Of a stretch of 53,249 nucleotides of DNA, positions 1 through 52,930 are shown one piece after another. Source of the stretch: Deltaproteobacteria bacterium (lineage in GTDB: Bacteria > Desulfobacterota > Binatia > UTPRO1); contig VBKW01000143.1 in the NCBI GenBank assembly GCA_005879405.1, positions 1 through 53,249 on the forward strand, written 5' to 3'. The translations under genes were made by a program, and so were the position numbers. The notes below the pieces were generated by a model. That model was not told where the DNA came from and made no database searches. It saw only the letters and a program-made list of their open reading frames with translations. The first letter of the stretch is position 1, and each line of letters starts with the position of its first letter.

Positions 1-612
1 GAGCGGACGGGCGAGCCCGGCGTCGCGACCGGCCTCGCCTACACGCCGAACGGCGGCGACATCCTCTTCATCGAATCGACGAAGATGAGCGGCAAGAAGG
101 GTCTGACGCTCACCGGCCATCTCGGCGAGGTCATGAAGGAGTCAGCGCAGGCGGCGCTCAGCTACGTCCGCACCCGCGCCGAGCGCCTCGGCATCGCCCC
201 CGACTTCTTCGAGAACTGCGACATCCACATCCACGTCCCCGCGGGCGCGATCCCGAAGGATGGCCCGTCGGCGGGCGTCACGATCGCTGCCTCGCTCGCG
301 TCGCTCCTCACCGGCCGCCCCGTGAAGCACAACCTGGCGATGACCGGCGAGATCACGCTCCGCGGCAAGGTGATGCCGGTCGGCGGCGTCAAGGAGAAGG
401 TACTCGCCGCGAAGCGCGCCGGCATCGACACCGTCGTGCTGCCGAAGCTCAACGAGAAGGATCTCGAGGACGTGCCGCCGAAGGTGCGCGAGGAGATGAC
501 GTTCGAGTTCGTCGACACGATCGACGAGGTGCTGGAGCGCGCGCTCGAGCCCGCAGCGGAGCCCATGGAGCGCGGCGGCGAGCCGCGCCCCAAGCGCGCC
601 GCGGTCGTCTGA
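1..612 (+). CDS. lon: Lon protease, C-terminal part (5' end outside window)
   Basis: Frame 1 is open from base 1 ([25 protein letters not shown]...) into track ORF 85..612. Proteolytic-domain signatures [10 protein letters not shown] (catalytic Ser) and [14 protein letters not shown] (catalytic Lys). Confidence 0.9.
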
Positions 613-690
613 GCGCGGCGCGCGGCCGAGCACCCGTCGCCCTCGATTCTTTCTCGCCGACTGCCGATACTCCCCGCGAGCGATCGACGT

Positions 691-2145
691 ATGGCGGCGG
701 CCCCTCGCATCCTCATGGCGGCGTCGGAAATGACGCCGTACGCACAGACCGGCGGTCTGGGCGACGTCCTCGCGGCACTTCCTGCGGCGCTCGCCGAGCT
801 CGGCGCCGCGGTGCACGTGGTGCTGCCGGCGTACGGTACGATCGATGTGAATGCCGCCGCGGCGGTGCTGAGCAGCAGCGTCGAGGTGCGAGTCGGCGGG
901 ACCCGTCGCGAGGTCGGGCTCCGCACGGCGCGGGCGGGTGCGGTTTCCGTGTCCTTCGTCGAGGCCGACGAGTACTTCGGCCGTGACCATCTCTACGGCG
1001 GTCCATACGGCGACTACCCCGACAATGCCGAGCGCTTCGCGTTCTTCTCGCGCGCCGTGCTGGCGCTCGCGGCGCGGCTCGAGCCCGCGCCAGACATCGT
1101 GCACTGCCACGATTGGCAGGCGGCGCTCGTCCCCGTCTATGCGCGCGCGTTTCCTGATCCACGTCTCGCCGCGGTGCGGACGGTCCTCACGATCCACAAT
1201 CTCGGCTATCAGGGGATCTTTCCGGCGGCGGTGTGGCCGCTCCTCGACCTCGACTGGAGCTACTTCACGCCGCGGACGCTCGAGTTCTACGGCCAAGCGA
1301 ATCTCCTGAAGGGCGGCATCGTCTTCGCCGACGCGCTGACGACGGTGAGCCGGCGGTACGCCGAGGAGATCCTCACCCCCGAATACGGCAACGGGCTCGA
1401 CGGCGTCCTGCGCGAGCGCCATGAGGCGCTGCACGGGATTCTGAACGGCGTCGACTACACGAGCTGGGATCCGGCGCGCGACCCGTACATCACGGCGCGG
1501 TACGATCGCGACGATCTCGGCGGCAAGGCGCGTTGCAAGGCGGATCTGCAAGCGCGCTTCGGTCTCGACGTCGCACCGCAGATCCCGCTCTTCGGCATGG
1601 TGACGCGCCTCGCCGATCAGAAGGGCCTCGACCTCGTCATGGCCGCGCTCCCCGACCTGCTCCGCGACGACGCTCAGCTGGCGATCCTCGGCAACGGCGA
1701 CGCGCGCTACGAGCACGAGCTGTCGATCGAGGGACGGCGCGCGCCCGGACGCCTCGCCGTCCATATCGCGTACGACCCGGCGCTCGCGCACCAGGTCGAG
1801 GCCGGCGCCGACGCTTTCTTGATGCCGTCGCGCTACGAGCCGTGCGGCCTGAACCAGATGTACAGCTTGCGCTACGGGACGGTTCCCGTGGTGCGCGCGA
1901 CGGGCGGGCTCGACGACACCGTTGCCGAGTTCGACGCCGCGAGCGGGCGCGGGACCGGCTTCAAGTTCGGGCCGTACACTGCGGAGGCGCTGCTCGGCGC
2001 CGTCGCGCGGGCCGTCGACGTGTACCGCCGTCCGGATGACTGGCGCCGACTCGTTCGAAACGGCATGGCATGCGACTTTGCGTGGCGTGACGCCGCCGAG
2101 CGCTACCTCGCGCTCTACCGCTTGCTCATCGCATCGCGCACCTGA
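691..2145 (+). CDS. glgA: Glycogen (starch) synthase
   Basis: 484-aa ORF with N-terminal ILMAASEMTPYAQTGGLGDV (KTGGL-type motif) and typical GlgA blocks (VHCHDWQAAL, TIHNLGYQG, MPSRYEPCGLNQMY). Confidence 0.9.
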   Translation: MAAAPRILMAASEMTPYAQTGGLGDVLAALPAALAELGAAVHVVLPAYGTIDVNAAAAVLSSSVEVRVGGTRREVGLRTARAGAVSVSFVEADEYFGRDHLYGGPYGDYPDNAERFAFFSRAVLALAARLEPAPDIVHCHDWQAALVPVYARAFPDPRLAAVRTVLTIHNLGYQGIFPAAVWPLLDLDWSYFTPRTLEFYGQANLLKGGIVFADALTTVSRRYAEEILTPEYGNGLDGVLRERHEALHGILNGVDYTSWDPARDPYITARYDRDDLGGKARCKADLQARFGLDVAPQIPLFGMVTRLADQKGLDLVMAALPDLLRDDAQLAILGNGDARYEHELSIEGRRAPGRLAVHIAYDPALAHQVEAGADAFLMPSRYEPCGLNQMYSLRYGTVPVVRATGGLDDTVAEFDAASGRGTGFKFGPYTAEALLGAVARAVDVYRRPDDWRRLVRNGMACDFAWRDAAERYLALYRLLIASRT

Positions 2146-2243
2146 CGACCCGCGTCTCCCGTCCGGAGGCTGAAGCTTGCCGACGTCGCCGCATCGATCC
2201 GTTGCGGCGCCGGCGTCATCCCCGTCGCGCGGCAGATCTCGCC

Positions 2244-2258
2244 CGGCAGAGTTTGCCG
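2244..2258. promoter_or_regulatory. Palindrome CGGCAgagttTGCCG, candidate enhancer (UAS) for a sigma-54 activator
   Basis: Perfect CGGCA-N5-TGCCG inverted repeat 50 nt upstream of the sigma-54 promoter at 2309. The same palindrome is at 15489 and 37802. Confidence 0.5.
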
Positions 2259-2308
2259 CCGGTCGCGACCGGCACCAAGCGCGCGCCGACGGAACGCGGC
2301 GTTGCGGC

Positions 2309-2324
2309 CGGCACCCTGCTTGCT
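2309..2324 (+). promoter_or_regulatory. Sigma-54 (-24/-12) promoter
   Basis: CGGCACCCTGCTTGCT versus consensus TGGCAC-N5-TTGCW, with exact GG-N10-GC spacing. Lies 28 nt upstream of ATG 2353. Confidence 0.6.
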
Positions 2325-2352
2325 CCTCCGCGGATGCGGAGGAGACCGTCTC

Positions 2353-3300
2353 ATGCGCATCGATCCCCAGCGCGATACGATTCCCGCAGTGCGGCCGTCA
2401 TCGACCGGCGGCTCGTCGACCGGCTTCGCGAGCGCGCTCGCCAGCGTGCGCAGCGCGACCGACCCGAGCCTGCCCGCAGCGGCGGACCGTGGGCAGGTAG
2501 GAAAGGTACCGATCGCGCAGCAATGGGGTCAGTACGGCAAGGGCGCCGGCCCGGAAGGGTACGGTGCGCCGCCGGATCCGGCGCAATTCGCCGACGTGCC
2601 GATCGGTCCCCATGAGCCTGCGAGCCCGCTCAACCCGAGCGGCGTCACGACCACGCCCGGATTCACCGTCGACGGCTATACCGCGCGCGGGACGCCCATC
2701 CCGCCGGGCTTCTACAACCTCGCCTATTACAACTGGTACCTGCGCGAAGGCGGGACGCCGCTCGAAGGGTTCCCGCAGCTCGCCGACGGCGCGACGATTA
2801 CCGAGACGTACGGCAAGTTCGGTGACGGCGCGACGCGCGCCACGAGCTTCATCACCGCGCCGGCCGACACCACCGACCCCAGCGGCATGATGAGCGGCAC
2901 GGGTGGAGATCCCATCGCAGCCACGGGCGCCACGCCGCCGGCATTCGCGAACGTCGCTGACGCGTTGACGAACGCGCTCGACGTCGCGCGGACGGGCGCC
3001 GCCGGCTCTGCCGGTGCCGCCGTCTCGGCATCGCCGGACGAACCCGCTCCCTCTGCGACGACGGCGACGGCCGCGACGACCGCGACGATGGCGACCGCGA
3101 GCGCTCAGCGCGTCGTGGCGACGCCGTCGCGACCCGCCGCGTCCGAAATGACGTCGCGCGCCGGAAGCGGTGCGGGGCCGGCAACCGATCAGTCCGCCGC
3201 GGCGACGGTCGCGAGCGGCAGCGTCGCGTCGACGAACGACGTCGAGGCGGCGCTTCGCGCCGAGCTGACGACGCTGGTGCGCGATCTCATGCGCGCCTAG
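2353..3300 (+). CDS. Hypothetical protein (315 aa): disordered N-terminus, aromatic-rich core, Ala/Thr/Ser-rich tail
   Basis: ATG 2353 lies 8 nt after GGAGGAG. Strong GC3 bias in this frame. No signal peptide or TM seen and no family recognised. The TTG at 2302 (track start) would overlap the promoter. Confidence 0.6.
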   Translation: MRIDPQRDTIPAVRPSSTGGSSTGFASALASVRSATDPSLPAAADRGQVGKVPIAQQWGQYGKGAGPEGYGAPPDPAQFADVPIGPHEPASPLNPSGVTTTPGFTVDGYTARGTPIPPGFYNLAYYNWYLREGGTPLEGFPQLADGATITETYGKFGDGATRATSFITAPADTTDPSGMMSGTGGDPIAATGATPPAFANVADALTNALDVARTGAAGSAGAAVSASPDEPAPSATTATAATTATMATASAQRVVATPSRPAASEMTSRAGSGAGPATDQSAAATVASGSVASTNDVEAALRAELTTLVRDLMRA

Positions 3301-3325
3301 CGCCGCTCGGCAACGACGCCGTCTC
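3297..3325. repeat. 29-bp direct repeat, copy 1 (ctagcgccgctcggcaacgacgccgtctc)
   Basis: Identical to 3384..3412. Overlaps the TAG stop of the 2353..3300 ORF. The two copies flank a 58-bp lower-GC spacer. Confidence 0.9.
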
Positions 3326-3383
3326 CCTTGGCAGGGCTGAAAATCCCTCGCAGACTTATGCAACGAATTTCCGGGACGGGACA

Positions 3384-3412
3384 CTAGCGCCGCTCGGCAA
3401 CGACGCCGTCTC
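3384..3412. repeat. 29-bp direct repeat, copy 2 (3' end of gph)
   Basis: Identical to 3297..3325. Encodes the last residues (..GVVAERR*) and the stop of the - strand HAD gene. Confidence 0.9.
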
Positions 3413-4055
3413 GGCAGACGCCGAGGAGCTCCTCGGGTACGGCGATCAGAACGTCGGCGGCGCTGTCGCGCACGGACGGACCGCTGAATCCCCACAATAC
3501 ACCGCAGGTCGCGACGCCGGCGTTGCGGCCGGTCGTGACGTCGATCGCCGAGTCGCCGACCATGAGCGTCCGCGCGGCGGGCACCGCCACGTCCTCGACG
3601 AGCCGCAGGAGACCGCTCGGGTCCGGCTTCTTCGCTCCCAGCGAGTCGCCGCCGACGATGCGCGGGAAGCGCGCCGCCAAGCCGAGGCCGTGGACGATGG
3701 CGCGGCTCATGTCCTCGGGCTTGTTCGTCAGCACCGAGAAGACCGTCCCCTCCTCTGCGAGGCTCTCCAAGACCGGCACGAGGCCCGGGTAGAGCGCGCT
3801 GCGATCGAGCAGGTGCGCGCGATACCACGGCATGAAGATCGCGACCGCCGGCTCCAGCAAATGCGCGTGCTCCGCTCCGAGCGCGCGCTCGAGCAGCACT
3901 CGCGCGCCGTGTCCGACGTAGCCCCAGAGCGTTCGCCGATCCTGCGGCGGAAGACCGAGCGCCCGCAGCGTCACGTTCACCGCGTCGGCGAGATCGTCCT
4001 TGGTGTCGACGAGCGTCCCGTCGAGATCGAAGACGACGTGGGTGAACGCGTTCAC
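3384..4055 (-). CDS. gph: HAD-superfamily hydrolase, phosphoglycolate phosphatase-like
   Basis: HAD motif I VVFDLDGTLVDT, motif II SVLTNKP, motif III/IV KKPDP...MVGDSAIDV. 223 aa. Confidence 0.75.
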   Translation of the reverse strand: MNAFTHVVFDLDGTLVDTKDDLADAVNVTLRALGLPPQDRRTLWGYVGHGARVLLERALGAEHAHLLEPAVAIFMPWYRAHLLDRSALYPGLVPVLESLAEEGTVFSVLTNKPEDMSRAIVHGLGLAARFPRIVGGDSLGAKKPDPSGLLRLVEDVAVPAARTLMVGDSAIDVTTGRNAGVATCGVLWGFSGPSVRDSAADVLIAVPEELLGVCRDGVVAERR

Positions 4056-4136
4056 GCCGCGCCGCGGGCGCCGTGAGGTCGCGACGGCGCCGCAGGCCTG
4101 TGCCGCGGCGTCACCGCGCCGGCGGCCGCGCGCTGC

Positions 4137-4460
4137 TCACGCCGAGAACGACGACCCGCACCCGCACGTCCGCTCCGCCTTCGGGTTCACGAACTTGAAC
4201 CCCGATCCGTGCAGCCCCGACACGAAATCGAGCGTCGTCCCGGCGAGATATTCGAGCGACGCCGCATCGACGAGTACCCGAACCCCATCGACCTCGACGA
4301 CCCGATCGTCCGCCTTCTGCTCCTTGTCGAAGCTCATCGTGTACGAGAACCCCGAACACCCCCCGCCGACGACGCCGACGCGCAGCGCGTACTCCGCCCC
4401 GCGGTTCTCACGCTGCATGGCCGTCTTCACCATCTCGACAGCTCTGTCGGTAAGGGTCAT
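4137..4460 (-). CDS. erpA: Fe-S cluster insertion protein (IscA/ErpA/HesB family)
   Basis: Contains GGGCSGFSY and C-terminal NPKAERTCGCGSSFSA. ATG 4460 is preceded by GAGGAG. The track ORF extends further upstream (4619), but that part looks non-native. Confidence 0.85.
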   Translation of the reverse strand: MTLTDRAVEMVKTAMQRENRGAEYALRVGVVGGGCSGFSYTMSFDKEQKADDRVVEVDGVRVLVDAASLEYLAGTTLDFVSGLHGSGFKFVNPKAERTCGCGSSFSA

Positions 4461-4659
4461 GACCGGCTCCTCGGCTGAGCTGGCGACGTCCGAAGCGACG
4501 TGTACGTCCATCACCACGACGGTAACGGGACCGGTACGAAGAGTCAATCGCGTGTGACGCCGCCGCACGGCGGATGGGCGGCGACGTCTCCGCTCGTCCG
4601 CCGTGCGGCGAGATCGCAATCGTACGAACGGTTCCGAACGGGCCGCGGCCGCGCCGCCG

Positions 4660-5841
4660 TCAAGACGGCAGCCGTAGGTCCTCGGACGTCTCCACGCTCG
4701 GTGGCACGACGAGCGGGTTCAATGCCGCCCAATCCGGCTGTGTCGTCAGGACGTTCGCGACTTCGCGCTTGCGCTTCAGCTTCTCGAGGAGCGTCGTGCG
4801 ATTGAGGTTGAGGAGGCGCGCCGCCTCCTTCTTGTTGCCGCGGCTGATGTGGAGCGCGCGGGCGATGATGCGGTCCTCGATCGACGCCATCTCGCGATAG
4901 AAGTCGATGCCCTGCTGATCGAAGTCCCATGGCGGCGTCGTCCAGCCACCGGTCGCGCTCAGGCGTCCGCCTCCACGGAGCTGTGGCGGCAGATGCTCGG
5001 CGCGGATCACGCGCTCCGTGTCACCGAGCACGACGAGCTGCTCGAGCAAGTTCTTCAGCTCGCGCACGTTCCCCGGCCAGTGATACGCGGTCAGGATGCC
5101 GAGCGCGTCGTCGGTGATCTCGAAGCGCGGTAGACCCTTCGCGCTGTGCAGATGGCCGAGGAACCACTCGACGAGGAGCGGAATGTCCTCGCGACGCTCG
5201 CGTAAGGGCGGCATCTCGACGGGGACGACGCGCAGCCGATAGTACAGATCCTCACGGAACCGGCGGTCGGCGACCGCTTCCTCGAGGTTGCGATTGGTGG
5301 CAGCGACGATGCGCACGTCCACGCACTGCGTGGTGATGCCGCCGACGGGCTCGAACATGCCGTTCTCGAGCACGCGCAGCAGCTTGACCTGCAGCTTCGG
5401 GCTCATGTCGCCGATCTCGTCGAGGAAGATCGTGCCGCCGTCGGCGAGCCGAAAGCGCCCGACTCGTGAGCAGATCGCGCCGGTGAACGCGCCGCGCTCG
5501 TGGCCGAACATCTCGCTCTCGAGGAGATCCTCGGGGATCGCCCCGCAGTGCACCGGCACCAGCCGCTGCAACCGCCGGCGGCTGCGCTCATGGATCGCCT
5601 GCGCGACGAGCTCCTTGCCGGTCCCGCTCTCGCCGGTGACGAGCACGGTCGCGTTCGTGCCCGCGACCCGACGAACGATGTCGAACACCGCCTGCATGCT
5701 GCGGTGCCGGCCGATGATGCCGGCGAACCCCGGCCTCCCCGACTCCACTTCATCGACGGTTGCCGGCGTCGCCTCCGAAGCCGCCACCACCACCTCGTCC
5801 GTCGTCTCCGTTTCCGGACTCACGAACTCGAACGCTCTCAT
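4660..5841 (-). CDS. Sigma-54-dependent transcriptional activator without a receiver domain (AAA+ plus Fis-type HTH)
   Basis: Walker [15 protein letters not shown] loop (ERGAFTGA), Walker B IFLDEIG, and C-terminal [23 protein letters not shown]. Only about 45 aa precede the AAA+ core. Confidence 0.9.
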
Positions 5842-5882
5842 CGTCCCCTCCTTGGCCCCGTTGATGCGGCGTCGAGCGACTG

Positions 5883-5898
5883 AGCAAGCGAGGTGCCA
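5883..5898 (-). promoter_or_regulatory. Sigma-54 promoter of the receiver-less activator gene
   Basis: The - strand reads TGGCACCTCGCTTGCT, a perfect consensus. It lies 41 nt upstream of ATG 5841, with AAGGAGGGG as SD. Confidence 0.75.
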
Positions 5899-6036
5899 GA
5901 AACTTGAACAACTCCCATAGTCAGCGTCACACGCCGCGCGACATCGAATTGTCAGGTAAATTTCGTGACACGACGCCTCGCATGGGATCGCGACGCCGTC
6001 CGCGAATGTGCGCTTCCGTACATTCCTGTCGCGCGA

Positions 6037-6052
6037 CGGCCAAAAATTGGCG
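6037..6052. promoter_or_regulatory. Palindrome-like CGGCCAaaaaTTGGCG, candidate enhancer (class B)
   Basis: About 140 nt upstream of the sigma-54 promoter at 5883..5898. Related sites at 42785 and 53069. Confidence 0.35.
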
Positions 6053-6072
6053 ACCGCCGCGACGGCGCGAGT

Positions 6073-6573
6073 TTACGCCCGCGCCGCCACACGCGACGGA
6101 ACGACGAGGAAGTCCGGCGGGCAGTGCGGCAGGTCGAGCACGATCTGCCGCGCGCGGCGCGTCCGTAGATCGACGACGACCGGCGCCATCAGATTGACCG
6201 TCATCAGCGTCGGGTCTCTCGGAATGGTGACGATGACGAGCAGCGCGATGTCGTTCGGATCGGTCTCGAGGAGACGCGCCGCGGTCTCGAGCGGCGGCTC
6301 GTAGCCGGCGACGAGCTCGCACGGATTGGCGACCGCGAACGCCAGCTCCGGATCGTCGATCGCGAGCAGCCATTTGAAGGGCGACCCCGGCCGATGCTCC
6401 AGCACGACGTAGCGCCGCAGTTGCGGGAACCCGACCAGACCCTGCGGGATCTCGACGATGCTCGCGCGCGAGATCTCGAACGACCCGAACCGTCGCGACC
6501 GGACGTGCAACGTCGGCGAGGGATCGACCTCGCGCGACGCATGCGCGGCGGTGCACTCAGTCGTGCTTGGCAT
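6073..6573 (-). CDS. fliW: Flagellar assembly factor FliW
   Basis: Contains RFGSFEISRASIVEIPQGLVGFPQLRRYVVLEH..PFKWLLAIDDPELAFAVANP, typical of FliW, and is adjacent to csrA. Start uncertain: ATG 6573 overlaps csrA by 17 nt, and TTG 6510 is an alternative. Confidence 0.85.
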   Translation of the reverse strand: MPSTTECTAAHASREVDPSPTLHVRSRRFGSFEISRASIVEIPQGLVGFPQLRRYVVLEHRPGSPFKWLLAIDDPELAFAVANPCELVAGYEPPLETAARLLETDPNDIALLVIVTIPRDPTLMTVNLMAPVVVDLRTRRARQIVLDLPHCPPDFLVVPSRVAARA

Positions 6574-6805
6574 TGCCGACCTCCAGCCACAGCTCGGCGG
6601 CGTCGGCGAGACGGTCCTCGCCCGCGAGCCGAGCCTTTTGATTCTGCTCTTCGATCGCGCGAAAGATCTCCTCGCGAAAGATGCGCACGTCCGCCGGCGC
6701 GGTCAGGCCGAGTCGCACCTGGCCGCCGCGGATCGCGAGCACCTGCACCCGCACGTCGTCGCCGAGGCGAATGGTTTCACCGATCTTCCGTGTCAATACC
6801 AACAT
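6557..6805 (-). CDS. csrA: Carbon storage regulator CsrA (flagellar, FliW-partner type)
   Basis: N-terminus MLVLTRKIGETIRLGDDVRVQVLAIRGGQVRLGLTAPADVRIFREEI. AGGAGGG SD upstream of the ATG. Confidence 0.95.
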   Translation of the reverse strand: MLVLTRKIGETIRLGDDVRVQVLAIRGGQVRLGLTAPADVRIFREEIFRAIEEQNQKARLAGEDRLADAAELWLEVGNAKHD

Positions 6806-6843
6806 GCCGCCCTCCTGGCAGGCGTCATCGTCGAACGATCAGG

Positions 6844-7737
6844 TCACAGCTGCAGGAAGTCGAGGACGCTCGTTTGTAACTTGTTGCCGACCGCCAGCGC
6901 TGCTTGCAGCGCCGTCTGGAGCTGGACGAACCGGCTGATCGCGGCCGAGAGATCGACGTCCTCGATGCCGCTCACCAACGTCTGCGCGCCCGCGGTCAGG
7001 CTGTCGATCTGGTCGCTGCGATCCTGGAGCCGGGTCATCCGTCCGCCGATCGCCGCCCGCTCTTCGCCGATCCCCGCCGCGGCGCCGGCGAGCGCGTCGA
7101 TGCTCGTCGTCGGCGTTCCGCCGGCGGCGAGCGTCTGGCGCATGTCGTCGAGGGCGGTGATCGCGGCGCCGAACACGTGGTCGCCCGGCGTCGTCAACGT
7201 CACCGTCTGGCCGGAGCCGATCGGCAGGACGAAGGGATCCGTCGGGCCACTGTAGGCGGTCGCGGCGTCGAAGTTCGGATCGTCGAGATTCGCGAACGGC
7301 TGCTGGCCGCTCGCGAGACCGCCGAACACGTAGCGGCCGCCGACCGCGGTGTTCGCCAAGCTCAAGACGCTGCTCTCGATCTGCACCACCTCGGCGGATG
7401 CTTGCTGGCGCTGCTCAGGCGTGACGAGCCCGCTCGTCGTCTGCGCCGCGATCTCGCTCGCGCGCGTGAGCAGGCTTTCGACCTGCTGGAGCGCGCTGTC
7501 CTCCGCGCTCAGGACGGCGTTGCCGAGCCCGATGCCGTCCTTCGCCGCCGCGAGCGCGCGCACCTCGCCGTGCAGCCGGTTCGCCGCCGCCGTTCCCGCC
7601 GGGTCGTCACTCGGGTTCTGCAGCTTCTTTTGCGAGCTGACCTGCGCCTGGGCGTCTGCGATCTGTCGTTGCAGGCGGGCGACGCTCGTCGTCAGCTCGC
7701 GAAAGAGCGTGCTCTGTGTGACCCGGCCGAGGATCAT
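6844..7737 (-). CDS. flgL: Flagellar hook-associated protein 3 (FlgL)
   Basis: Flagellin-like N- and C-terminal helices (..QKKLQNPSDDPAG.., ..AAISRFVQLQTALQAALAVGNKL..). Follows flgK with a 4-nt overlap. Confidence 0.85.
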   Translation of the reverse strand: MILGRVTQSTLFRELTTSVARLQRQIADAQAQVSSQKKLQNPSDDPAGTAAANRLHGEVRALAAAKDGIGLGNAVLSAEDSALQQVESLLTRASEIAAQTTSGLVTPEQRQQASAEVVQIESSVLSLANTAVGGRYVFGGLASGQQPFANLDDPNFDAATAYSGPTDPFVLPIGSGQTVTLTTPGDHVFGAAITALDDMRQTLAAGGTPTTSIDALAGAAAGIGEERAAIGGRMTRLQDRSDQIDSLTAGAQTLVSGIEDVDLSAAISRFVQLQTALQAALAVGNKLQTSVLDFLQL

Positions 7738-9116
7738 TGGAGTACCGAAAACAGGTCGTCGAGCATGTGGTTGCTGACGACGATCAGCTGCGAGGCTGCT
7801 TGGAAGCCGCGCTGGAATTGGATGAGGTTCGTGAACTCTTCCTCGAGGCTGACGCCCGAGACCGCGTCGCGCTGCGCCGACAGCGTATCCGACACCGTTT
7901 GCTCGATCGTGGCCTGCGCGTCCGCCGTCCGCGCCAGCGCGCCGGCGTGCGCCTGGATCCCGCCGAAGAAGTCGCCGAGCGTGACGTCGGCGAGCGCGGC
8001 AAAGGTCGTGTCGCCGAGGGCGAGCAATGCCTGGGCGCCGGTATTGTCGCCGGGATTGGCGGTACGCGCGGCGGCGATGCCGCGCGGATCAGTCAGCGCG
8101 ACGGTCAAGTCGGCGGCGCCCGTTCCGGCGAAGAACGCCGCGCCGACGCTGCCGTCGAGGTCGCGACCCGCCGGATCCGTCTGCACGGCGTTCACCGCGT
8201 CGCGGAGCGTCGTCGCGAGGCTATCGAGGTCGGCCGCGACCGCCGGCGTCGTGTTGTCGCGGACGTCGAGCAAGGCGCCGAGCGTCCCGCCGAGCGCGCC
8301 CGGCAGCGGGACCGCCGCATTGCCCTGCTGCACCGCGATCTGTGCCACTGCGCCGCCGTCGAGCGCGGAGCCGCTCGCGCCGTTGACGGTCGTGAGCGTC
8401 GCCGCGTCGCTGCCGAGGACGAGCGCGACCCCCGAGGTGGCGTACACGTTCGTCGTGCCGTCGGATTGCTCGACGACGTGCACGTCGAGACTCTTCGCCA
8501 GCGACAGCAGCGCCTCGCGCCGCGCGTCGCGCAGATCGTTGGCGGTCGCACCGCCGACCTCCGCCGCGTGAATGTTGGCGTTCAGGCTGGCGATCGTCGT
8601 CAGCAGCTGATTCGCGTCGCGCGTCGTCTGCACGACTTGGCGATCGACGTCGCGTTGCGAGCTGGCGAGCGACGCGGCGCTGGCGCGCAGCTGCGACGCG
8701 AGCGTCTCCGCCTTCTGCAACAGGTCCGAGCGAGTGCCGATGTCCTGCGGGCTCGTCGCGAGCGCGTTGGCGGCGGCGAAGAACTCCTGCAACGCGGTGC
8801 CGATCCCCGCGCCTTGCACCGGAAACGTGCCTTGGATGCGATCGAGGAGATCGCGGCTCGTCGTCGCCGCGGCGAGCGTCGAGGCGCTGGCGAGCCGCCG
8901 CGCCTCGAGAAACGGATCGACGGCCTGCAGGACCGCGCCGGCGCGGACGCCGCCGCCGACGGCGTCGCCTTCCGGCGGCACGCTCGTCAGCACGACGCTT
9001 TGCCGGCTGTACCCGGGCGTGTTGACGTTGGCGATGTTCTGCCCGGTCACCTGCAGTGCGCGCTGCTGCGCGAGCAAGGCTTGGCGAGCGATCGAGAGCG
9101 GCGCGAAGATCGACAT
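7734..9116 (-). CDS. flgK: Flagellar hook-associated protein 1 (FlgK)
   Basis: N-terminus MSIFAPLSIARQALLAQQRALQVTGQNIANVNTPGYSRQ. C-terminus EEEFTNLIQFQRGFQAASQLI. Confidence 0.9.
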   Translation of the reverse strand: MSIFAPLSIARQALLAQQRALQVTGQNIANVNTPGYSRQSVVLTSVPPEGDAVGGGVRAGAVLQAVDPFLEARRLASASTLAAATTSRDLLDRIQGTFPVQGAGIGTALQEFFAAANALATSPQDIGTRSDLLQKAETLASQLRASAASLASSQRDVDRQVVQTTRDANQLLTTIASLNANIHAAEVGGATANDLRDARREALLSLAKSLDVHVVEQSDGTTNVYATSGVALVLGSDAATLTTVNGASGSALDGGAVAQIAVQQGNAAVPLPGALGGTLGALLDVRDNTTPAVAADLDSLATTLRDAVNAVQTDPAGRDLDGSVGAAFFAGTGAADLTVALTDPRGIAAARTANPGDNTGAQALLALGDTTFAALADVTLGDFFGGIQAHAGALARTADAQATIEQTVSDTLSAQRDAVSGVSLEEEFTNLIQFQRGFQAASQLIVVSNHMLDDLFSVLQ

Positions 9117-9572
9117 TCACGCGCTCCAGCGATTCGCCCTGCGCTCGGGCGTGCGCAGGACGGCCTGGCGATCGTACCGGCTCTCCGGAAGCTCGCGCCG
9201 CATCACGGTGAGCGTGTCGGTCACGTGCGCGAGCGCCGAACGGATGATCCCCTCGTTGATCCGTTGCGCGCGCCGCACGCGCGCAGCCTCGCCTCGCACC
9301 TCGTCGGCGACGGCCGCGAGCGCCGGGTCCGCGGTGGCGAGCGCGGCGAACGGCACCGCGGCTTCGCGCATGCGGTCACGGCGCAGCCGCGCGACCCGTT
9401 CCCACTCCGCTTGCAACACCTCGCGCTCGCGCAGGCAGGCGACGAGCGCCACGTGATCGTAGCCGGCGACGGCGGCGCGTTCCGCATCGAGGATGGGCAG
9501 CAGCCGTGCGCAGCAGTCGCGCTCGAGCTCGAGCAGGGCCCGCAGGCTCGCCCCGTTGGGCTCGAGGCTCAT
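9117..9572 (-). CDS. flgN: FlgN-like flagellar export chaperone
   Basis: 151-aa helical protein between flgM and flgK. ATG 9572. The longer track ORF (to 9860) overlaps flgM and is Arg-rich out-of-frame sequence. Confidence 0.6.
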   Translation of the reverse strand: MSLEPNGASLRALLELERDCCARLLPILDAERAAVAGYDHVALVACLREREVLQAEWERVARLRRDRMREAAVPFAALATADPALAAVADEVRGEAARVRRAQRINEGIIRSALAHVTDTLTVMRRELPESRYDRQAVLRTPERRANRWSA

Positions 9573-9576
9573 GACG

Positions 9577-9894
9577 TCAGACCACGAGATCGGCCGCGAG
9601 CTCGCTGACCAAGCTCTTCGCGACTGCCGCCGGATCGGGCTGATAGGCATTCGCCACGACGCGCGCCCGCAAGCTCGCGATGCGCGCCGCATCCGGATGC
9701 TCCACCGCGCCGACGTCGGCACGCAGTCGTTGCCGCAGCCGAGCACCGTCGGAGAGCTCGACCCGGTCCGCCGCGGTCGGATCGGGATCGCGTCCGCGCG
9801 TGTCGTCGGTCGTCGGACGCGGCAACGGGACGAGCGTGCTCGGATCCTCCACGCCCGCAATCCCTGGACCGTTCACTCGTCGCGTGATGCGCAT
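9577..9894 (-). CDS. flgM: Anti-sigma-28 factor FlgM
   Basis: 105 aa from ATG 9894. C-terminal RIASLRARVVANAYQPDPAAVAKSLVSE resembles the FlgM sigma-28-binding domain. A sigma-28 promoter lies upstream. Confidence 0.8.
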   Translation of the reverse strand: MRITRRVNGPGIAGVEDPSTLVPLPRPTTDDTRGRDPDPTAADRVELSDGARLRQRLRADVGAVEHPDAARIASLRARVVANAYQPDPAAVAKSLVSELAADLVV

Positions 9895-9991: not shown

Positions 9992-10879
9992 TCAGGCCTC
10001 CTCCGCGCCGTGCGGCGCCGGCGGCGCGACCGCCGTCGCGCCACCGTCAGGGGCGAGAACCGTCGACGGATCAACCGCTTGGCCGTCGCGGGTCACGGCG
10101 AAGTGGACGTGCGGACCGGTCGCGCGCCCCGTCGACCCCACCGTCGCGAGCACGTCGCCCGCGGCAACTTTCTGGCCGCGCTGGACCAGCGAGCGTTGGA
10201 CGTGGGCGTACGTGCTCACCACGTCGTCGGCGCGCACCTCGACGACGTTGCCCGCCTTGCCGCGCCGGCCGCTGAAGGTCACCTCGCCTGCCGCGACGGC
10301 GTGGATCGCGCTGCCGCGCGGCGCCGCCACGTCGATCCCGAGGTGGAGCGCGCGGGCGCCGGTGATGGGATCGCTGCGCACGCCGAAGCCCGACGTTACC
10401 CGTCCTTCGGCGCCGGCGACGAGCTGGCTCGCGACCGCGTTCTCGGCCGCCGTCGCCGCTCCGAGCCGATCCGAGTCCTCGCCGCCGCCGCTGCGGGTGG
10501 TCTCGTCGGCCGCGGCGATGCCACCGGGTGCCGCCGCCGTCTCGCCGTCGGCGGAGGTCGCCCCGTGCTCGCGGCGCTCGATCTGCGCCGCCAGCTGCTC
10601 CGCGAGCCCGAGGTGCGCGTTCTTCGTGATGCTGCGCGCCAGCTCGCTGTCGAACGCGCCGTCGAGGACCTTGTTCGCGGCGCTGTCGCCGCCGAAAAGG
10701 CCCGTGCTCGCGACCGTCTTCCGCATGGCGCCGATCACCTGCGCCACGAGCAGCGCTTCGAACTCGCGCGCGATCTCGAGCGGCGACTTGTGTCCCTGTC
10801 GATGCTGCTCGTCGATGCCTTGCGGCGTCGTCGGCAGGAGCGCCTCCGTACCGAGAGTGCCAATCGCAAGCGGGCTCAT
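9992..10879 (-). CDS. flgJ: FlgJ-type rod-binding domain fused to an M23 (LytM) peptidase domain
   Basis: N-terminal EIAREFEALLVAQVIGAMRKT (rod-binding). C-terminal HLGIDVAAPRGSAIHAVAAGEV...GSTGRATGPHVHFAV (M23 HxxxD/HxH). GGAGGA SD. Confidence 0.85.
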   Translation of the reverse strand: MSPLAIGTLGTEALLPTTPQGIDEQHRQGHKSPLEIAREFEALLVAQVIGAMRKTVASTGLFGGDSAANKVLDGAFDSELARSITKNAHLGLAEQLAAQIERREHGATSADGETAAAPGGIAAADETTRSGGGEDSDRLGAATAAENAVASQLVAGAEGRVTSGFGVRSDPITGARALHLGIDVAAPRGSAIHAVAAGEVTFSGRRGKAGNVVEVRADDVVSTYAHVQRSLVQRGQKVAAGDVLATVGSTGRATGPHVHFAVTRDGQAVDPSTVLAPDGGATAVAPPAPHGAEEA

Positions 10880-15370: not shown

Positions 15371-15386
15371 AGCAACGCTCGTGCCA
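15371..15386 (-). promoter_or_regulatory. Sigma-54 promoter of flgF-flgG-flgA-flgH-flgI-flgJ
   Basis: The - strand reads TGGCACGAGCGTTGCT, a perfect consensus. It lies 28 nt upstream of ATG 15342. Confidence 0.8.
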
Positions 15387-15488: not shown

Positions 15489-15503
15489 CGGCAAACTTTG
15501 CCG
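15489..15503. promoter_or_regulatory. Palindrome CGGCAaacttTGCCG, candidate enhancer (class A)
   Basis: Perfect CGGCA-N5-TGCCG 102 nt upstream of the flgF sigma-54 promoter. A degenerate second copy abuts it (about 15502..15517). Confidence 0.55.
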
Positions 15504-15565
15504 GGCGATTCTTGCCGCGTGCCCACGGTCGCGACGGCGCGCGCAGCCGACAGAGGCGCGTGCGG

Positions 15566-16048
15566 TCACGCGTGCACCGCCGTCGCGACGCGCGACCGCG
15601 ACGCCTTGCCGCGCGCGCCGCGCCGCTCGTCGTCGCGCAGACCGATGACGACGCGCACTTCCGCCGCCGGCATGTCGACGCGGCGGGCGATCTCCTCGAC
15701 CGGCATCGCCGCCGCGGCGAGGCCGCGAATGCTCGCGATCACGTCGCGATCGATCGCGCCTGCGTCGCGCGTCGCAGTGACGCCGGGGCGCGCGCCGACG
15801 GCGTTCGACTCGTCCACGAGCGCGCGCAAGCGTCGCTCGTGCGCGTCGAGCGCGCCGTCGAGGTCACGCGCGACTCCTTCCGATTGCGCGACGAGGACGC
15901 GCAGGCGCTCGAAGATCTCCTGCAAGCGGCGCTCGCGCTCTTCCCAGTCTGCGTGCGCTTGCGGGTCGCGACGCAGACGCCACGATACCGCTGCGAGCAT
16001 CACGATCACGACCACGTCCAGCGCCGGCATGATCCACGTACCATTCAT
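15566..16048 (-). CDS. Small single-pass membrane protein with coiled coil and C-terminal HTH-like segment (DUF2802-like)
   Basis: N-terminal TM MPALDVVVIVMLAAVSW, an Arg/Glu-rich helix, then C-terminal MPVEEIARRVDMPAAEVRVVIGL. Lies immediately downstream of fliA. Confidence 0.6.
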   Translation of the reverse strand: MNGTWIMPALDVVVIVMLAAVSWRLRRDPQAHADWEERERRLQEIFERLRVLVAQSEGVARDLDGALDAHERRLRALVDESNAVGARPGVTATRDAGAIDRDVIASIRGLAAAAMPVEEIARRVDMPAAEVRVVIGLRDDERRGARGKASRSRVATAVHA

Positions 16049-16067: not shown

Positions 16068-16844
16068 TCACGCCTGCGCGCCGAAGTGCTCGTGCAGGAG
16101 GCCGCGCAACCGCAGCAACGCCTGGGCGTGCAGCTGCGACACGCGCGACTCGGTGAGCCCGAGTACCGCGCCCGCCTCTTTCATCGTGATGCCTTCGTGA
16201 TAGTAGAGCGCGACCACCGTGCGCTCTTTCTCGGGCAGCGCACGGATCGCGTCGGCGACGAGCGAGACGCGCTCCTGTGACAGCAGCGCGTGCATCGGAT
16301 CGTCGCCCTCGCCTTGCAGAAGCCGCTCGAGCTGGATGCGCTCCTGCCCCGGCCGGACGCCGAGGTCTTCGAGACTGAAGAGCGTCATCTGCCCGACCTC
16401 GGAGAGCAGCGCGTGCAGCCCGCCGAGCGTCATCCCGAGGGCCTCCGCCGCCTCCTCCTCCGTCGCCGGCCGTCCGAGCACGCCTTCGAGACGACGGTAC
16501 GTCTTCTCGAGGAGCGTCGCCTTCTGCCGGACGCTCCGCGACACCCAATCCATGCCGCGCAAGTGATCGAGGATCGCGCCGCGGATGCGGAACTGCGCGT
16601 AGGTCGCGAACGCCGTCTGCTTCCTCTCGTCGTACTTCTTGAACGCGTCGAGGAGCCCCTCGATACCCCAGCTCACGAGCTCGTCGAGGTCGATCTGCGG
16701 CGGCTTGCGCACGGCGAGGCGCTGCACGACGCGGCGGACGAGCGGCAGATGCGCGCGGATCGCCTCGTCGGGCGGCGTCCCGGCGCGCTCGCTCGCGCTG
16801 CGGCCGCGCGCGCCGTACGCTTTCGTGTGGGAGCCGGTCCTCAC
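16068..16844 (-). CDS. fliA: Flagellar sigma factor FliA (sigma-28)
   Basis: Region 2 FATYAQFRIRGAILDHLR and region 4 TMKEAGAVLGLTESRVSQLHAQALLRLR. GTG 16844 overlaps the flhG stop (GTGA), with GGAGG 7 nt upstream. Confidence 0.9.
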   Translation of the reverse strand: MRTGSHTKAYGARGRSASERAGTPPDEAIRAHLPLVRRVVQRLAVRKPPQIDLDELVSWGIEGLLDAFKKYDERKQTAFATYAQFRIRGAILDHLRGMDWVSRSVRQKATLLEKTYRRLEGVLGRPATEEEAAEALGMTLGGLHALLSEVGQMTLFSLEDLGVRPGQERIQLERLLQGEGDDPMHALLSQERVSLVADAIRALPEKERTVVALYYHEGITMKEAGAVLGLTESRVSQLHAQALLRLRGLLHEHFGAQA

Positions 16845-17707
16845 GCGCGTTCCTCCGCCAAGAGACGCCGGAAGAAGAACTGCAGTCCGCCTTTGGGCGG
16901 CACGCTCTCGGGCCCGTCGACGACGCACTGCGCGAGCCTCTCGAACGCGCGGCTGACCGGCGCGTGCGGCGCGAGCTCGACGACCGCGCGCTGCCGCCGC
17001 ACCGCCTCCGGCACCTCGGCGTCGAACGGTACCCATCCCGCCCAGCGCAGGCTCACGTGGAGAAAGCGCTCGGCGACCCGACTCAGATGCGTGAACGTGC
17101 GCCGCGCCTCGAACTCGCCGCGCGCCATGTTGACGACCACGGCGAAGCGCTGCTCCGCGTAGCGTGTCGACAGCACCTTCACGAGCGCATACGCGTCGGT
17201 GAGCGCCGTTGGCTCGGGCGTGACGACGACCATCGTCTCGTGCGCCGCCGCCGCGAAGAAGAGGACGTTCGACGAGATGCCGGCGCCAGTGTCGAGTAGG
17301 AGCACGTCGAACGCGCCGTCGAGACTGTCGACCTGCTCGAGTAGGAGCAGGCGCTGCGCGTTCGTGAGCTGCGTCAACTCCTCGAAGCCACTCGCTGCCG
17401 GTACGATCTGGATGCCCGCGGGCCCCTCGACGAGGACGTCGCGCAGCGGGCACTCGCCATGCAGCACATGCCGGAGCGTCGCGCGCGGGTTGACGCCGAG
17501 GAGCGTGTCGAGATTCGCGAGCCCGAGGTCGGCGTCGACCACGATCACGCGCTGGCCGCGGCGCCGGAGCGCGATCGCGAGATTCGCGACGATGTTGGTC
17601 TTGCCGACGCCGCCTTTGCCGCTCGCGACCGCGATCGTGCGGCCGCCCCGCGTGACGGCATTCGAGGCCGCAGCCGTCCCGGTTCCGCTGTCCGGTCGCA
17701 CGCTCAT
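16841..17707 (-). CDS. flhG: MinD/ParA-type ATPase FlhG
   Basis: Deviant Walker A ASGKGGVGKTN and C-terminal amphipathic GGLQFFFRRLL. ATG 17707 overlaps the flhF stop (ATGA). No obvious N-terminal DQAxxLR motif. Confidence 0.9.
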   Translation of the reverse strand: MSVRPDSGTGTAAASNAVTRGGRTIAVASGKGGVGKTNIVANLAIALRRRGQRVIVVDADLGLANLDTLLGVNPRATLRHVLHGECPLRDVLVEGPAGIQIVPAASGFEELTQLTNAQRLLLLEQVDSLDGAFDVLLLDTGAGISSNVLFFAAAAHETMVVVTPEPTALTDAYALVKVLSTRYAEQRFAVVVNMARGEFEARRTFTHLSRVAERFLHVSLRWAGWVPFDAEVPEAVRRQRAVVELAPHAPVSRAFERLAQCVVDGPESVPPKGGLQFFFRRLLAEERA

Positions 17708-30388: not shown

Positions 30389-30404
30389 AGCAAGGTGGGT
30401 GCCA
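30389..30404 (-). promoter_or_regulatory. Sigma-54 promoter in front of fliK-flgD-flgE
   Basis: The - strand reads TGGCACCCACCTTGCT, a perfect consensus. Only 13 nt separate it from ATG 30375, which implies a near-leaderless mRNA or a later start. Confidence 0.55.
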
Positions 30405-37680: not shown

Positions 37681-37696
37681 AGCAAGTTGCATTCCA
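37681..37696 (-). promoter_or_regulatory. Sigma-54 promoter of flgB-flgC-fliE-fliF-fliG-fliH-fliI-fliJ
   Basis: The - strand reads TGGAATGCAACTTGCT (GG and TTGCT conserved, exact spacing). It lies 27 nt upstream of ATG 37653. Confidence 0.6.
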
Positions 37697-37801: not shown

Positions 37802-37816
37802 CGGCAAGTTTTGCCG
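37802..37816. promoter_or_regulatory. Palindrome CGGCAagtttTGCCG, candidate enhancer (class A)
   Basis: Perfect CGGCA-N5-TGCCG 105 nt upstream of the flgB sigma-54 promoter, embedded in the larger inverted repeat CTGACGGCAA..TTGCCGGTGTCAG. Confidence 0.55.
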
Positions 37817-37913: not shown

Positions 37914-39305
<1,392 letters not shown>

Positions 39306-39311
39306 TCCCCG

Positions 39312-40202
39312 TCAGCGCCCGCTCGGCGCTGCATGCGGCAACGTGAGGACGAACGTCGCGCCGCGCGCGCTCGGCCGCAGCGCCAGCGTGCCACCGTGCG
39401 CGGCGACGGCAGCGCGCGCGACCGCGAGGCCGAGACCCGTGCCGCGCTCCTTCGTGGTGAAGAACGGCGTGAAGACGCTCTCGGCGCTCGCCGCCGGAAC
39501 CCCCGGCCCGTCGTCGGCGACGACGAGCCGCAGCCAGCGCGGCGACGGCTCGAGCGCGATCACGAGCGTCCCGCTTCCGGCCATCGCCTCCGCGGCGTTG
39601 CGGACGAGGTTGTGCAACGCTTGCGCGAGGAGACGCCGGTCGACCGGCCAGGTGGCCGCGCGCGCACCGCGACGCTCGACCGTGACGTCGCCGAGCGCCG
39701 GCGCCGCCGCGGCGAGCACCTCGTCGACGAGGGCGCCCAGGTCCGTCGTCGCGAGACGCGGCTCGGGCAGCCGGGTGTAGTCGAGAATGTTCGTCACCAG
39801 ATGGTTCAGATCGGCGACGCCGCCCGCCACCTGCTCCGCGAGCCGCAGCGCCGACGGCTGCGCCCGCACCTCGTCGACGAGGAGCTTGATGCACAGCTCC
39901 ATCGCGCCGAGCGGATTGCGCACCTCGTGGGCGAGCGTCGCCGCCATCTCGCCCATCGCGGCGAGGCGGCCGTGGCGCAGCGCCTGCGTCTCGAGACACC
40001 GCTGCCGCTCGATGCTCGCGTCGAGCGCCCGCTTCTTGTCGTCGAGCTCGAGCCGCAGCGCGTCGGCGTAGGCTTGTAGCTCGCGATACTGCTCCTCGAG
40101 CGTCGTCGTCGCTTCGGTGAAGACGCGAAACGCGGCGTGCAGCTCGGCGAGCTGCCGCTCGCTCGGTCGTGCGACGCGGTCGACGGCGGCTTCCACGCTC
40201 AC
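39312..40202 (-). CDS. Cytoplasmic histidine kinase without a recognisable sensor domain (coiled coil + HisKA + HATPase_c), FlgS/FlrB-like
   Basis: H-box MAATLAHEVRNPLGAM, N-box HNLVRNAAEA, G1 DDGPGV, G2 GTGLGLAV. No TM segment. GTG 40202 overlaps the upstream stop (GTGA). Confidence 0.9.
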   Translation of the reverse strand: MSVEAAVDRVARPSERQLAELHAAFRVFTEATTTLEEQYRELQAYADALRLELDDKKRALDASIERQRCLETQALRHGRLAAMGEMAATLAHEVRNPLGAMELCIKLLVDEVRAQPSALRLAEQVAGGVADLNHLVTNILDYTRLPEPRLATTDLGALVDEVLAAAAPALGDVTVERRGARAATWPVDRRLLAQALHNLVRNAAEAMAGSGTLVIALEPSPRWLRLVVADDGPGVPAASAESVFTPFFTTKERGTGLGLAVARAAVAAHGGTLALRPSARGATFVLTLPHAAPSGR

Positions 40203-42688: not shown

Positions 42689-42710
42689 ACCAGGAAAAAA
42701 TTGCCGGTCG

Positions 42711-42726
42711 AGCAACGCTCGTGCCG
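42711..42726 (-). promoter_or_regulatory. Sigma-54 promoter of the AMIN-TPR / kinase / response-regulator operon
   Basis: The - strand reads CGGCACGAGCGTTGCT, identical to the flgF promoter in 15 of 16 positions. It lies 22 nt upstream of ATG 42688. Confidence 0.65.
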
Positions 42727-42784: not shown

Positions 42785-42802
42785 CGGCCAGGCTTTTGGC
42801 CG
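42785..42802. promoter_or_regulatory. Palindrome CGGCCAggctttTGGCCG, candidate enhancer (class B)
   Basis: Perfect 6-bp arms, 58 nt upstream of the sigma-54 promoter at 42711..42726. Confidence 0.4.
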
Positions 42803-48873: not shown

Positions 48874-48975
48874 GCCGTCTCCCGGGCGAGCACGGCCGCC
48901 TCGCGGCATTACCGCGAGGCGGCCCCCCGAACCCCCTTCTCCTCAGTCCTCCCCGCCTCCGCCGCCGGCGAAAGG

Positions 48976-48991
48976 AGCAAGACGAATGCCA
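48976..48991 (-). promoter_or_regulatory. Sigma-54 promoter of the glycosyltransferase operon
   Basis: The - strand reads TGGCATTCGTCTTGCT (TGGCAT-N5-TTGCT). It lies 66 nt upstream of ATG 48909 and 102 nt upstream of ATG 48873. Confidence 0.7.
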
Positions 48992-49154
48992 CGGGATTTC
49001 GTGCTCGAAGTGCGCGACATGTTTCCGCCGCTCGACGGGTCGCCGCATGCCGCGGCCGGAAATCTGTGCCGCCGTCGCGCCGCCGTCAGCGAATTGACAG
49101 CCGCCCGAGCACCCGTCCCTGCGGCGTCACCGCGTCGCTTCGCTGCCGATAGGA

Positions 49155-52902: not shown

Positions 52903-52930
52903 TTATCGTCGATGGTCACCGGAAACTTGA
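52903..52930 (-). promoter_or_regulatory. Sigma-28 (FliA) promoter of fliC
   Basis: The - strand reads TCAAGTTT..-GACGATAA (TCAA-N16-GACGATAA; consensus TAAA-N15-GCCGATAA). The spacing matches the flgM promoter. Confidence 0.6.

Follow-up and report, generated by a model that had tools for sequence, protein, structure and literature searches.

The subject of this work is a gene of 315 codons (2353..3300, +; hereafter the target gene) in a 53,249-nucleotide stretch of DNA from a Deltaproteobacteria bacterium of the Binatia (assembly GCA_005879405.1, contig VBKW01000143.1). The whole stretch is referred to as the window, and it also carries a flagellar gene cluster. The target gene is very probably a member of the flagellar regulon that depends on sigma-54 and an activator, as judged by the promoter and palindrome that it shares with the rod operons. 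The best overall explanation, to which we assign a probability of about 0.6, is that its product is a flagellar accessory protein of the rod/hook stage produced under sigma-54 control. Membership in the flagellar regulon had been proposed in the first-pass annotation of this DNA and is strongly supported in silico by a conserved promoter-enhancer pair, the same enhancer before flgF, and synteny.

Promoter and palindrome in the window

A sigma-54-type promoter, CGGCACCCTGCTTGCT, was located upstream of the target gene at 2309..2324 (+) in a TGGCAC-N5-TTGCW context. This site, which can also be written cGGCACcctgcTTGCT, has its GG at 2310-2311 and its GC at 2322-2323, exactly 10 nt apart. The interval from TTGCT to the ATG is 28 nt for the target gene, 28 nt for flgF and 27 nt for flgB. 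At 2244..2258 (+), 50 nt before the promoter, lies the palindrome CGGCAGAGTTTGCCG (CGGCA-N5-TGCCG), a putative activator site (upstream activating sequence), and exactly 14 nt before it the half-site CGGCAG (2230..2235, +), which would form part of a composite enhancer. The first-pass annotation had described a promoter 28 nt from the ATG with the geometry of flgF and a perfect palindrome 50 nt further upstream, and both descriptions agree with these positions. A Shine-Dalgarno sequence, GGAGGAG, follows at 2338..2344 (+), and no sigma-70-like site was found within 2100-3500.

The same elements precede flgF and flgB. The composite enhancer of flgF (15489..15517, -) consists of CGGCAA, 8 nt, and then CGGCAAAGTTTGCCG, with the half-site at 15517-15512 and the palindrome at 15489-15503; its sigma-54 promoter, TGGCACGAGCGTTGCT, is at 15371..15386 (-), where TTGCT ends at 15371 and the ATG is at 15342. 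The target gene and flgF therefore have in common a longer element, CGGCA(G/A), 8 nt, and the palindrome. For flgB, the palindrome CGGCAAAACTTGCCG is at 37802..37816 (-), just downstream of the gene for a response-regulator activator, and the sigma-54-type promoter TGGAATGCAACTTGCT is at 37681..37696 (-), 27 nt from the ATG at 37653. The distance from the centre of the palindrome to the GG at -24 is 59 nt for the target gene, 111 nt for flgF and 114 nt for flgB, a gap of about five helical turns between the target gene and the two rod operons.

Both signals are enriched in the window. The exact form CGGCA-N5-TGCCG occurs four times against 0.16 expected, and none of 100 shuffles reached four copies; GGCAY-N5-TTGCW occurs seven times against 0.12 expected, all seven in front of cluster genes. 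Three of the four palindromes (target, flgF and flgB) have an A/T-rich centre, and each is upstream of a sigma-54-type promoter. The fourth exact copy, at 49786-49800, has a GC-rich centre, lies inside fliS and is read as chance. The claim that the palindrome is otherwise present only before flgF and flgB is thus true for the A/T-centred form. Degenerate palindromes were also found upstream of the fliK promoter (30389-30403) and of the glycosyltransferase promoter (48976-48990). The palindrome of the target gene was rejected as a terminator of glgA, since a terminator scan found none and the element also occurs before flgF and flgB.

Conservation of the signals across Binatia

The signals were scored in 25 orthologous loci, the window included; the seven genome loci were all Candidatus Binatia or 'Deltaproteobacteria' metagenome-assembled genomes, and 20 metagenome loci were added. 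The promoter was present with at most one mismatch in 23 of the 25 loci and was always 25-29 nt from the start codon. In the remaining two it reads GGTCC-N5-TTGC, which retains GG and TTGC. The palindrome was present with at most one mismatch in 24 of the 25 loci, starting 55-58 or 65-68 nt from GG; these two distance classes are one helical turn apart, so the helical phase is preserved. The half-site CGGCA(A/G) was found exactly 14 nt upstream of the palindrome in 20 of the 25 loci. In the alignment of the upstream regions (alignment A2), the only conserved islands are the half-site, the palindrome, the -24/-12 elements, the Shine-Dalgarno sequence, in which GGAGG is invariant, and the start codon; the spacer of 40-50 nt between palindrome and promoter is unconserved. 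Conservation of the promoter-palindrome pair upstream of orthologues, suggested as a check with the first-pass annotation, came out in favour of the proposal, the pair being kept in 24 of the 25 loci.

The flgF regions of four other Binatia genomes (L028-L031), three of which also gave target loci, were taken for comparison. Each of the four has the same composite element and a TGGCA(C/T)-N5-TTGCT promoter before flgF, and the half-site arrangement is present in L028, L030 and L031.

The target gene at the edge of the flagellar cluster

The coding sequence runs from the ATG at 2353 to the stop codon at 3298-3300 on the plus strand and encodes 315 amino acids. As the first-pass annotation had stated, this open reading frame (ORF) is situated between glgA and gph on the strand opposite the flagellar cluster, which was correct when checked on the sequence. 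The additional description of the gene as an orphan outside the cluster was misleading: the gene of a flagellar sigma-54 activator is 1.3 kb away, and the place of the target gene beside the cluster is conserved. Wherever a locus extends far enough to include neighbouring genes, the order is lon-(glgA)-target, followed in convergent orientation by (gph)-erpA-activator-fliW-flgL-flgK. In some loci glgA or gph is missing, and the target gene still adjoins the flagellar cluster there. This synteny makes the target gene the terminal gene of the cluster rather than an orphan. It is probably transcribed alone, because it is a single gene and convergent on gph. No paralogue of the target was found within the window, and a scan of positions 1-8000 against Rfam gave no match.

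The GC content of the window is 71%, and the third-position GC content (GC3) of the target frame is 0.85 along its whole length. When the target gene was compared with its close relatives in L010 and L012, the ratio of nonsynonymous to synonymous divergence (dN/dS) was about 0.09 in the core of the protein, a sign of strong purifying selection, and about 0.8 in a variable spacer, which is close to neutral. As a separate observation, the synonymous divergence (dS) in these comparisons reached 0.17 for the core and 0.29 for the spacer, compared with 0.06-0.09 for glgA and gph; that of the target gene (2353-3300) is thus 2-4 times that of its immediate neighbours (691-2145 and 3384-4055), which hints at recombination or local hypermutability in the target gene.

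A protein family restricted to Binatia

The target protein has 33 homologues, all of them hypothetical, none named and none with a Pfam domain. An exhaustive profile search of 1.84 billion representatives retrieved 18 cluster representatives, all below 1e-38, and because no weaker matches lie beyond this value the family boundary is sharp. Searches of the target protein against Pfam at E up to 10, against NCBIfam and against the PDB by sequence profile found no known domain or distant relative, and 30 family members searched against Pfam at E up to 1 gave no match. Judged by these searches, the target founds a Binatia-restricted family without a known domain.

Four regions were distinguished in the protein. 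Residues 1-29 (2353..2439, +) contain, according to the family alignment, a nearly invariant M-R-I-x-P and the motif F25-A-S-A-L29, separated by a variable stretch; F25 and L29 are the only invariant residues among the first 50. The conserved core, residues 51-170 (2503..2862, +), has about 40 invariant columns, is 30% Gly and Pro and 13% aromatic, and includes the motifs GYTxRGTPIPPGFYNLAYYNxYLxEGGTPLEGF and TYGxFGDGxxRATSF. A variable spacer rich in Ala, Thr, Ser and Pro follows at residues 171-290 (2863..3222, +), with insertions and deletions even between close relatives. The C-terminal amphipathic helix, residues 294-314 (3232..3294, +; LRAELxxLLxDLLR), is conserved, with L308 invariant and R302, L309, L312 and L313 nearly invariant.

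These properties are in line with the first description of the protein, which had given it no signal peptide, a disordered N-terminus, an aromatic-rich core, an Ala/Thr-rich tail and a terminal amphipathic helix. The protein has no hydrophobic segment (maximum Kyte-Doolittle value of 0.8 over 19 residues), no signal peptide, no membrane segment and no Cys. Its N-terminus is rich in Ser, Ala, Gly and Pro, its core in Gly, Pro and aromatic residues, and its tail in Ala and Thr. Two AlphaFold2 runs were made, one for the full-length protein from 30 sequences and one for the core from 24. The mean predicted local distance difference test score (pLDDT) was 46 in the full-length run and 44 in the run restricted to the core (core range, 37-64), and values above 90 were obtained solely for the C-terminal helix, which supports that part of the description. 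The protein is mostly disordered by prediction, and low pLDDT does not prove disorder because the alignments were shallow. No fold search was made, since at so low a mean pLDDT matches would be meaningless.

Candidate activators and proposed regulatory scheme

A complete flagellar supercluster occupies the minus strand, as annotated with Pfam and, for some genes, by reading the sequence. Its order is fliC, flaG, fliD, fliS, glycosyltransferases, an 838-aa ORF, a histidine kinase, an NtrC-type response-regulator activator; flgBC, fliEFGHI(J), fliK, flgDE, fliLMN(O)P(Q)R, flhBA, flhFG, fliA, a 160-aa ORF; flgFGAH(I)J, flgM, flgN, flgKL, fliW, a receiver-less activator, erpA and gph. Two sigma-54 activators are thus encoded, both with GAFTGA and a Fis-type helix-turn-helix (HTH_8). 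The NtrC/FlbD-like response regulator (37914..39305, -) has the Pfam architecture REC-AAA+-HTH_8; its best NCBIfam match is FlbD, below the family cut-off, and the histidine kinase gene (39312-40202, Pfam) is directly upstream of it. The second activator (4660..5841, -) is receiver-less (AAA+-HTH_8), lies 1.3 kb from the target gene and is syntenic with it in every locus reaching that far. An rpoN gene is not encoded within the window.

In the mechanism that we propose, the dimeric Fis-type HTH of one of these cluster-encoded activators would bind the palindrome. The likelier binder would be the FlbD/FlgR-like response regulator, which is paired with the adjacent histidine kinase and whose gene directly precedes the flgB site. 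The activator would turn the target gene on together with the rod and hook genes, and the Binatia-specific product would serve as a flagellar accessory protein of the rod/hook stage.

A two-component sigma-54 programme for rod and hook genes has been described for polar flagellates with FlhF and FlhG (PMC7064773), and the cluster layout fits this programme. As in the FlgSR, FlrBC, FleSR and FlbD/ftr hierarchies (PMC7064773, PMC3930126), a kinase and a GAFTGA/HTH_8 regulator are present, here adjoining flgB, together with FlhF, FlhG, -24/-12 promoters before rod and hook operons, an enhancer in the form of an inverted repeat some 85-140 nt before the probable start site, and a flagellin under a sigma-28-like promoter. 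The window differs from these systems in having two activators, one of them receiver-less, and two palindrome types, CGGCA-N5-TGCCG and CGGCCA-N5/6-TGGYCG, and its response regulator differs from FlbD in scoring below the cut-off of that family.

The second palindrome type, CGGCCA-N5/6-TGGYCG, has three matches in the window against 0.07 expected. Those at 42785-42802 and 53069-53085 are upstream of the sigma-54 promoters at 42711-42725 (-) and 53205-53218 (+), respectively; the former heads the operon of the 838-aa ORF, the histidine kinase and the response regulator, and the latter points beyond the end of the window. A pair of enhancer types would be in keeping with the two activators of the cluster. 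The 838-aa ORF (40199-42715, -) has no Pfam or NCBIfam match, and the core of its sigma-54 promoter, GGCACGAGCGTTGCT, is identical to that of flgF.

The genes for the receiver-less activator, an ErpA/IscA-type iron-sulphur (Fe-S) carrier and the HAD phosphatase gph are co-directional with short gaps (3384-5897, -). This unit is headed by a sigma-54 promoter (5883-5897) without CGGCA sites, which is accompanied by a TGTCA-N11-TGACA repeat in an AT-rich stretch. Nearly all Binatia loci share the activator-erpA-gph order, and all six genome loci that extend to the promoter have it. There is no evident reason for an Fe-S carrier and a phosphatase to accompany a flagellar activator.

Possible export and function of the target protein

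In Salmonella, export of the early substrates of the flagellar type III system requires two elements, a small hydrophobic signal at the N-terminus and a gate-recognition motif, FxxxΦ (PMC8983047). In FlgD these are 2SIAV5 and 36FLTLL40; the two signals must be separated by at least about 19 residues, with an optimum of about 24-30, and in the characterised Salmonella substrates FxxxΦ is found at residue 30 or later (PMC8983047). In the target family, M1-R2-I3-x-P5 is nearly invariant, and the FlgB (MRIF), FlgE (MAIF) and FlgK (MSIF) of the window begin alike. The motif F25ASAL29 is invariant and follows I3 by 21 residues, a separation that works in Salmonella FlgD but is sub-optimal. Within the window, FxxxΦ was found at residues 20-50 in seven of nine early substrates (FlgB, FliE, FliK, FlgD, FlgE, FlgG and FlgJ) and in six of 26 control proteins, three of these being membrane proteins.

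Compared with early type III substrates such as FlgD, FliK, FlgJ and FliE, the target protein likewise has no Sec signal, an N-terminus that is predicted to be disordered, a hydrophobic residue at position 3 and an invariant FxxxL, which resembles FGSAL in FlgB, FAEVL in FliE and FSTTL in FliK of the cluster; its promoter and enhancer are of the type found at the rod genes. It differs from them in the position of the motif (residue 25 versus 30-45), has no sequence or domain relationship to any of them, and lacks the terminal repeats of axial proteins, the FlgD domains and the FliK domain. The first-pass annotation had suggested a type III substrate from the disordered N-terminus and the missing Sec signal, which is a weak argument for export.

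On the basis of the motif, export of the target protein by the flagellar type III system is a tentative proposal, a little short of an even chance, and we hold the fuller scheme with the same reserve. In this scheme, the FxxxL motif would dock the protein at FlhB, and the export system would pass it, like an early substrate, into the periplasm or the growing structure; outside the cytoplasm the core would do its work, and the C-terminal helix would hold a partner.

Several points weigh against a flagellar accessory protein of this kind. Binatia are uncultured, and both the regulon and the binding of its sites are predictions from sequence. The orthologue in L024 has no palindrome though the promoter is kept, and L001 has AG, not GG, at -24. 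There are two candidate activators for the palindrome, of which the response regulator appears likelier than the receiver-less one in our analysis. The core is conserved and yet has neither a predicted fold (pLDDT 37-64) nor a homologue. FxxxΦ is short and gave only about 3-fold discrimination here, and in the target it stands at residue 25, 21 residues after I3, compared with residue 30 or later and an optimal separation of about 24 or more in Salmonella.

A serious alternative, which we nevertheless consider unlikely, is that the product belongs to the same regulon and stays in the cytoplasm as a regulator or assembly factor. It might be a partner of one of the sigma-54 activators, as FliX is of FlbD, or of FlhF/FlhG or the C-ring, and its C-terminal amphipathic helix and its conserved linear motifs would make the contact. 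Predicted disorder together with one confident helix is what is expected of a partner-binding protein, and the receiver-less activator, whose gene is adjacent in every locus reaching it, needs some other control. FliX and FlbD show that a flagellar sigma-54 activator can have a protein partner peculiar to one lineage (PMC3096577, PMC3930126). Like FliX of the alpha-proteobacteria (PMC3096577), the target is a lineage-restricted flagellar gene without an enzymatic domain, in a system with an activator that may not be controlled by phosphorylation, here the receiver-less one encoded next door. However, FliX is an early (class II) gene whereas the target has a rod-class enhancer, the two proteins differ in size and composition, and the target has no sequence similarity to FliX or to any Pfam family. 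The invariant FxxxL and the M-R-I N-terminus also look like export signals, and a cytoplasmic regulator would not usually have a core with 30% Gly and Pro followed by an Ala/Thr/Pro spacer. Membership in the FliX family was rejected on the lack of a Pfam or NCBIfam match, which presumes a FliX model in these libraries.

Considerably less probable is a co-regulated secreted factor, such as an adhesin or effector, that is released through or alongside the flagellum and has no part in its assembly; the flagellar co-expressed determinants of Campylobacter would be a model for such a factor. The separate single-gene unit on the opposite strand, the fast-evolving spacer, the synonymous divergence above that of neighbouring genes and the confinement of the family to one lineage would suit it. 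However, the target has the rod-operon enhancer and not a late promoter of the sigma-28 type found at fliC, its position at the cluster edge is retained even where glgA or gph has been lost, and the core is under strong purifying selection.

We regard as improbable, slightly more so than a secreted factor, a checkpoint in which the target protein would hold an activator or regulator through its helix or core and be expelled through the flagellum by means of FxxxL once the export gate and rod are competent, acting for sigma-54 activators as FlgM does for sigma-28. The target resembles FlgM in being mostly disordered by prediction, in starting with M-R-I, in its inferred co-expression with the export apparatus and in a conserved C-terminal helix that could hold a partner. 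It is, however, three times longer, has no FlgM domain and contains a large conserved non-helical core that is absent from FlgM. ExsE is an intrinsically disordered regulator that is secreted via a type III system, and we know of no exported anti-activator described for sigma-54 flagellar hierarchies.

It is very improbable that the target is a highly divergent copy of FlgM (anti-sigma-28), FlgD (hook cap) or FliK (hook ruler): its M-R-I-D resembles the M-R-I-T of the FlgM in the window, and pairwise BLASTP against the FlgD in the window gave two collinear weak matches (E 0.002 and 0.17, calculated for this one comparison) with a shared PLNP, but FlgM, FlgD and FliK are all encoded elsewhere in the cluster, the Pfam searches of the target (E up to 10) and of 30 family members (E up to 1) were empty, and when the family profile was searched against all ORFs of the window FlgD was not among the top hits and every hit had E >0.1. 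Each of these identities was also tried separately and rejected. For FlgM, there is no Pfam match and a typical FlgM (…DRVELSDGARL…ARIASLRARVVANAYQPD…) is encoded at 9577-9894, directly before flgN; for a FlgD paralogue, the weak pairwise BLAST match is unsupported by the family profile; and for FliK or FlgD, there are no domain hits and the profile retrieves neither protein of the window.

An artefact, whether a chance frame in DNA of 71% GC, a real antisense ORF at 2727-3104 or chance matches to the signals, is effectively refuted: long spurious ORFs are frequent at such GC content and GC3 alone cannot tell the strands apart, because the antisense frame uses the same third-codon positions, but 33 homologues can be aligned from M1 with a common start, Shine-Dalgarno sequence and promoter, the dN/dS of the core is 0.09, and the signals are kept in about 24 of the 25 loci and enriched over shuffles.

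Other features of the window

A sigma-28-like promoter (TCAAGTTT, 11 nt, CGACGATAA) is located at 52903-52930 (-), about 115 nt upstream of fliC, and the flagellin is therefore assigned to a late class apart from the target and rod genes. FliA (sigma-28) is the C-terminal part of a spuriously long ORF (16068-17453), with coding sequence from 16068 to about 16830 (-). The flgM gene (9577-9894, -) encodes a typical FlgM of 105 aa, and the start of flgN follows 5 nt later at 9571. The longest ORF listed here (9117-9860) reads the flgM stretch in another frame and continues into flgN, which is why annotation by ORFs and Pfam had not shown flgM. FlgJ (9992-10879, -) combines the rod-binding domain with an M23 peptidase, compared with a glucosaminidase domain in enteric FlgJ.

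Between fliA and the enhancer of flgF, the window (15566-16048, -) as well as L028 (1897-2364), L029 (1891-2361), L030 (1829-2371) and L031 (1807-2277) carry a gene of 155-180 aa that matches nothing in Pfam or NCBIfam; it is a further candidate for a lineage-specific flagellar gene. Large glycosyltransferase genes (GT9, and GT4 with TPR) are located inside the flagellar cluster at 43395-48990 (-), with a sigma-54-like promoter, GGCATTCGTCTTGCT, at 48976-48990 and a degenerate palindrome, CGGCACAGATTTCCG, at 49057-49071. These genes may form an island for flagellin glycosylation that is controlled in the same way.

The stop codons of the target gene and gph are separated by a 58-nt stretch of lower GC content, which is flanked by a perfect 29-nt direct repeat (3297-3325 and 3384-3412). 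L008, whose protein is 99% identical to the target, has at the same CTAG a stretch that is at least about 150 nt in length and bears long inverted repeats at its termini (GTGTCCCGTCCCGGAAATTCGTCGC… / …GCGACGAATTTCCGGGACGGGACAC; L008 2411-2558). L008 ends inside this repeat-bounded stretch, and its right end was inferred from the window. Related stretches are present in L010 (about 4865-5060) and L012 (about 6945-7145). The stretch 3' of the target looks like a palindromic element similar to a miniature inverted-repeat transposable element (MITE), of which the window retains the right half and a duplicated gph end.

Implications for the flagellar regulon of Binatia

Flagellar clusters often contain accessory genes that are specific to one lineage. 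Binatia are widespread and uncultured, and to our knowledge their motility is without experimental knowledge. The regulatory logic found here is of a known kind. The protein family is a new one, restricted to a single uncultured lineage. The analysis adds a delimited, previously unannotated gene family to the flagellar regulon of Binatia, and it defines elements of this regulon, two enhancer types and a fixed promoter geometry, that are usable to predict further members in metagenomes. If the target protein is a partner of the receiver-less activator, it would represent a new coupling of sigma-54 activity to flagellar assembly. If it is an early substrate of the type III system, it would add a new, non-axial cargo to the rod/hook stage and would offer a natural case for testing how closely the gate-recognition motif may follow the N-terminal signal.

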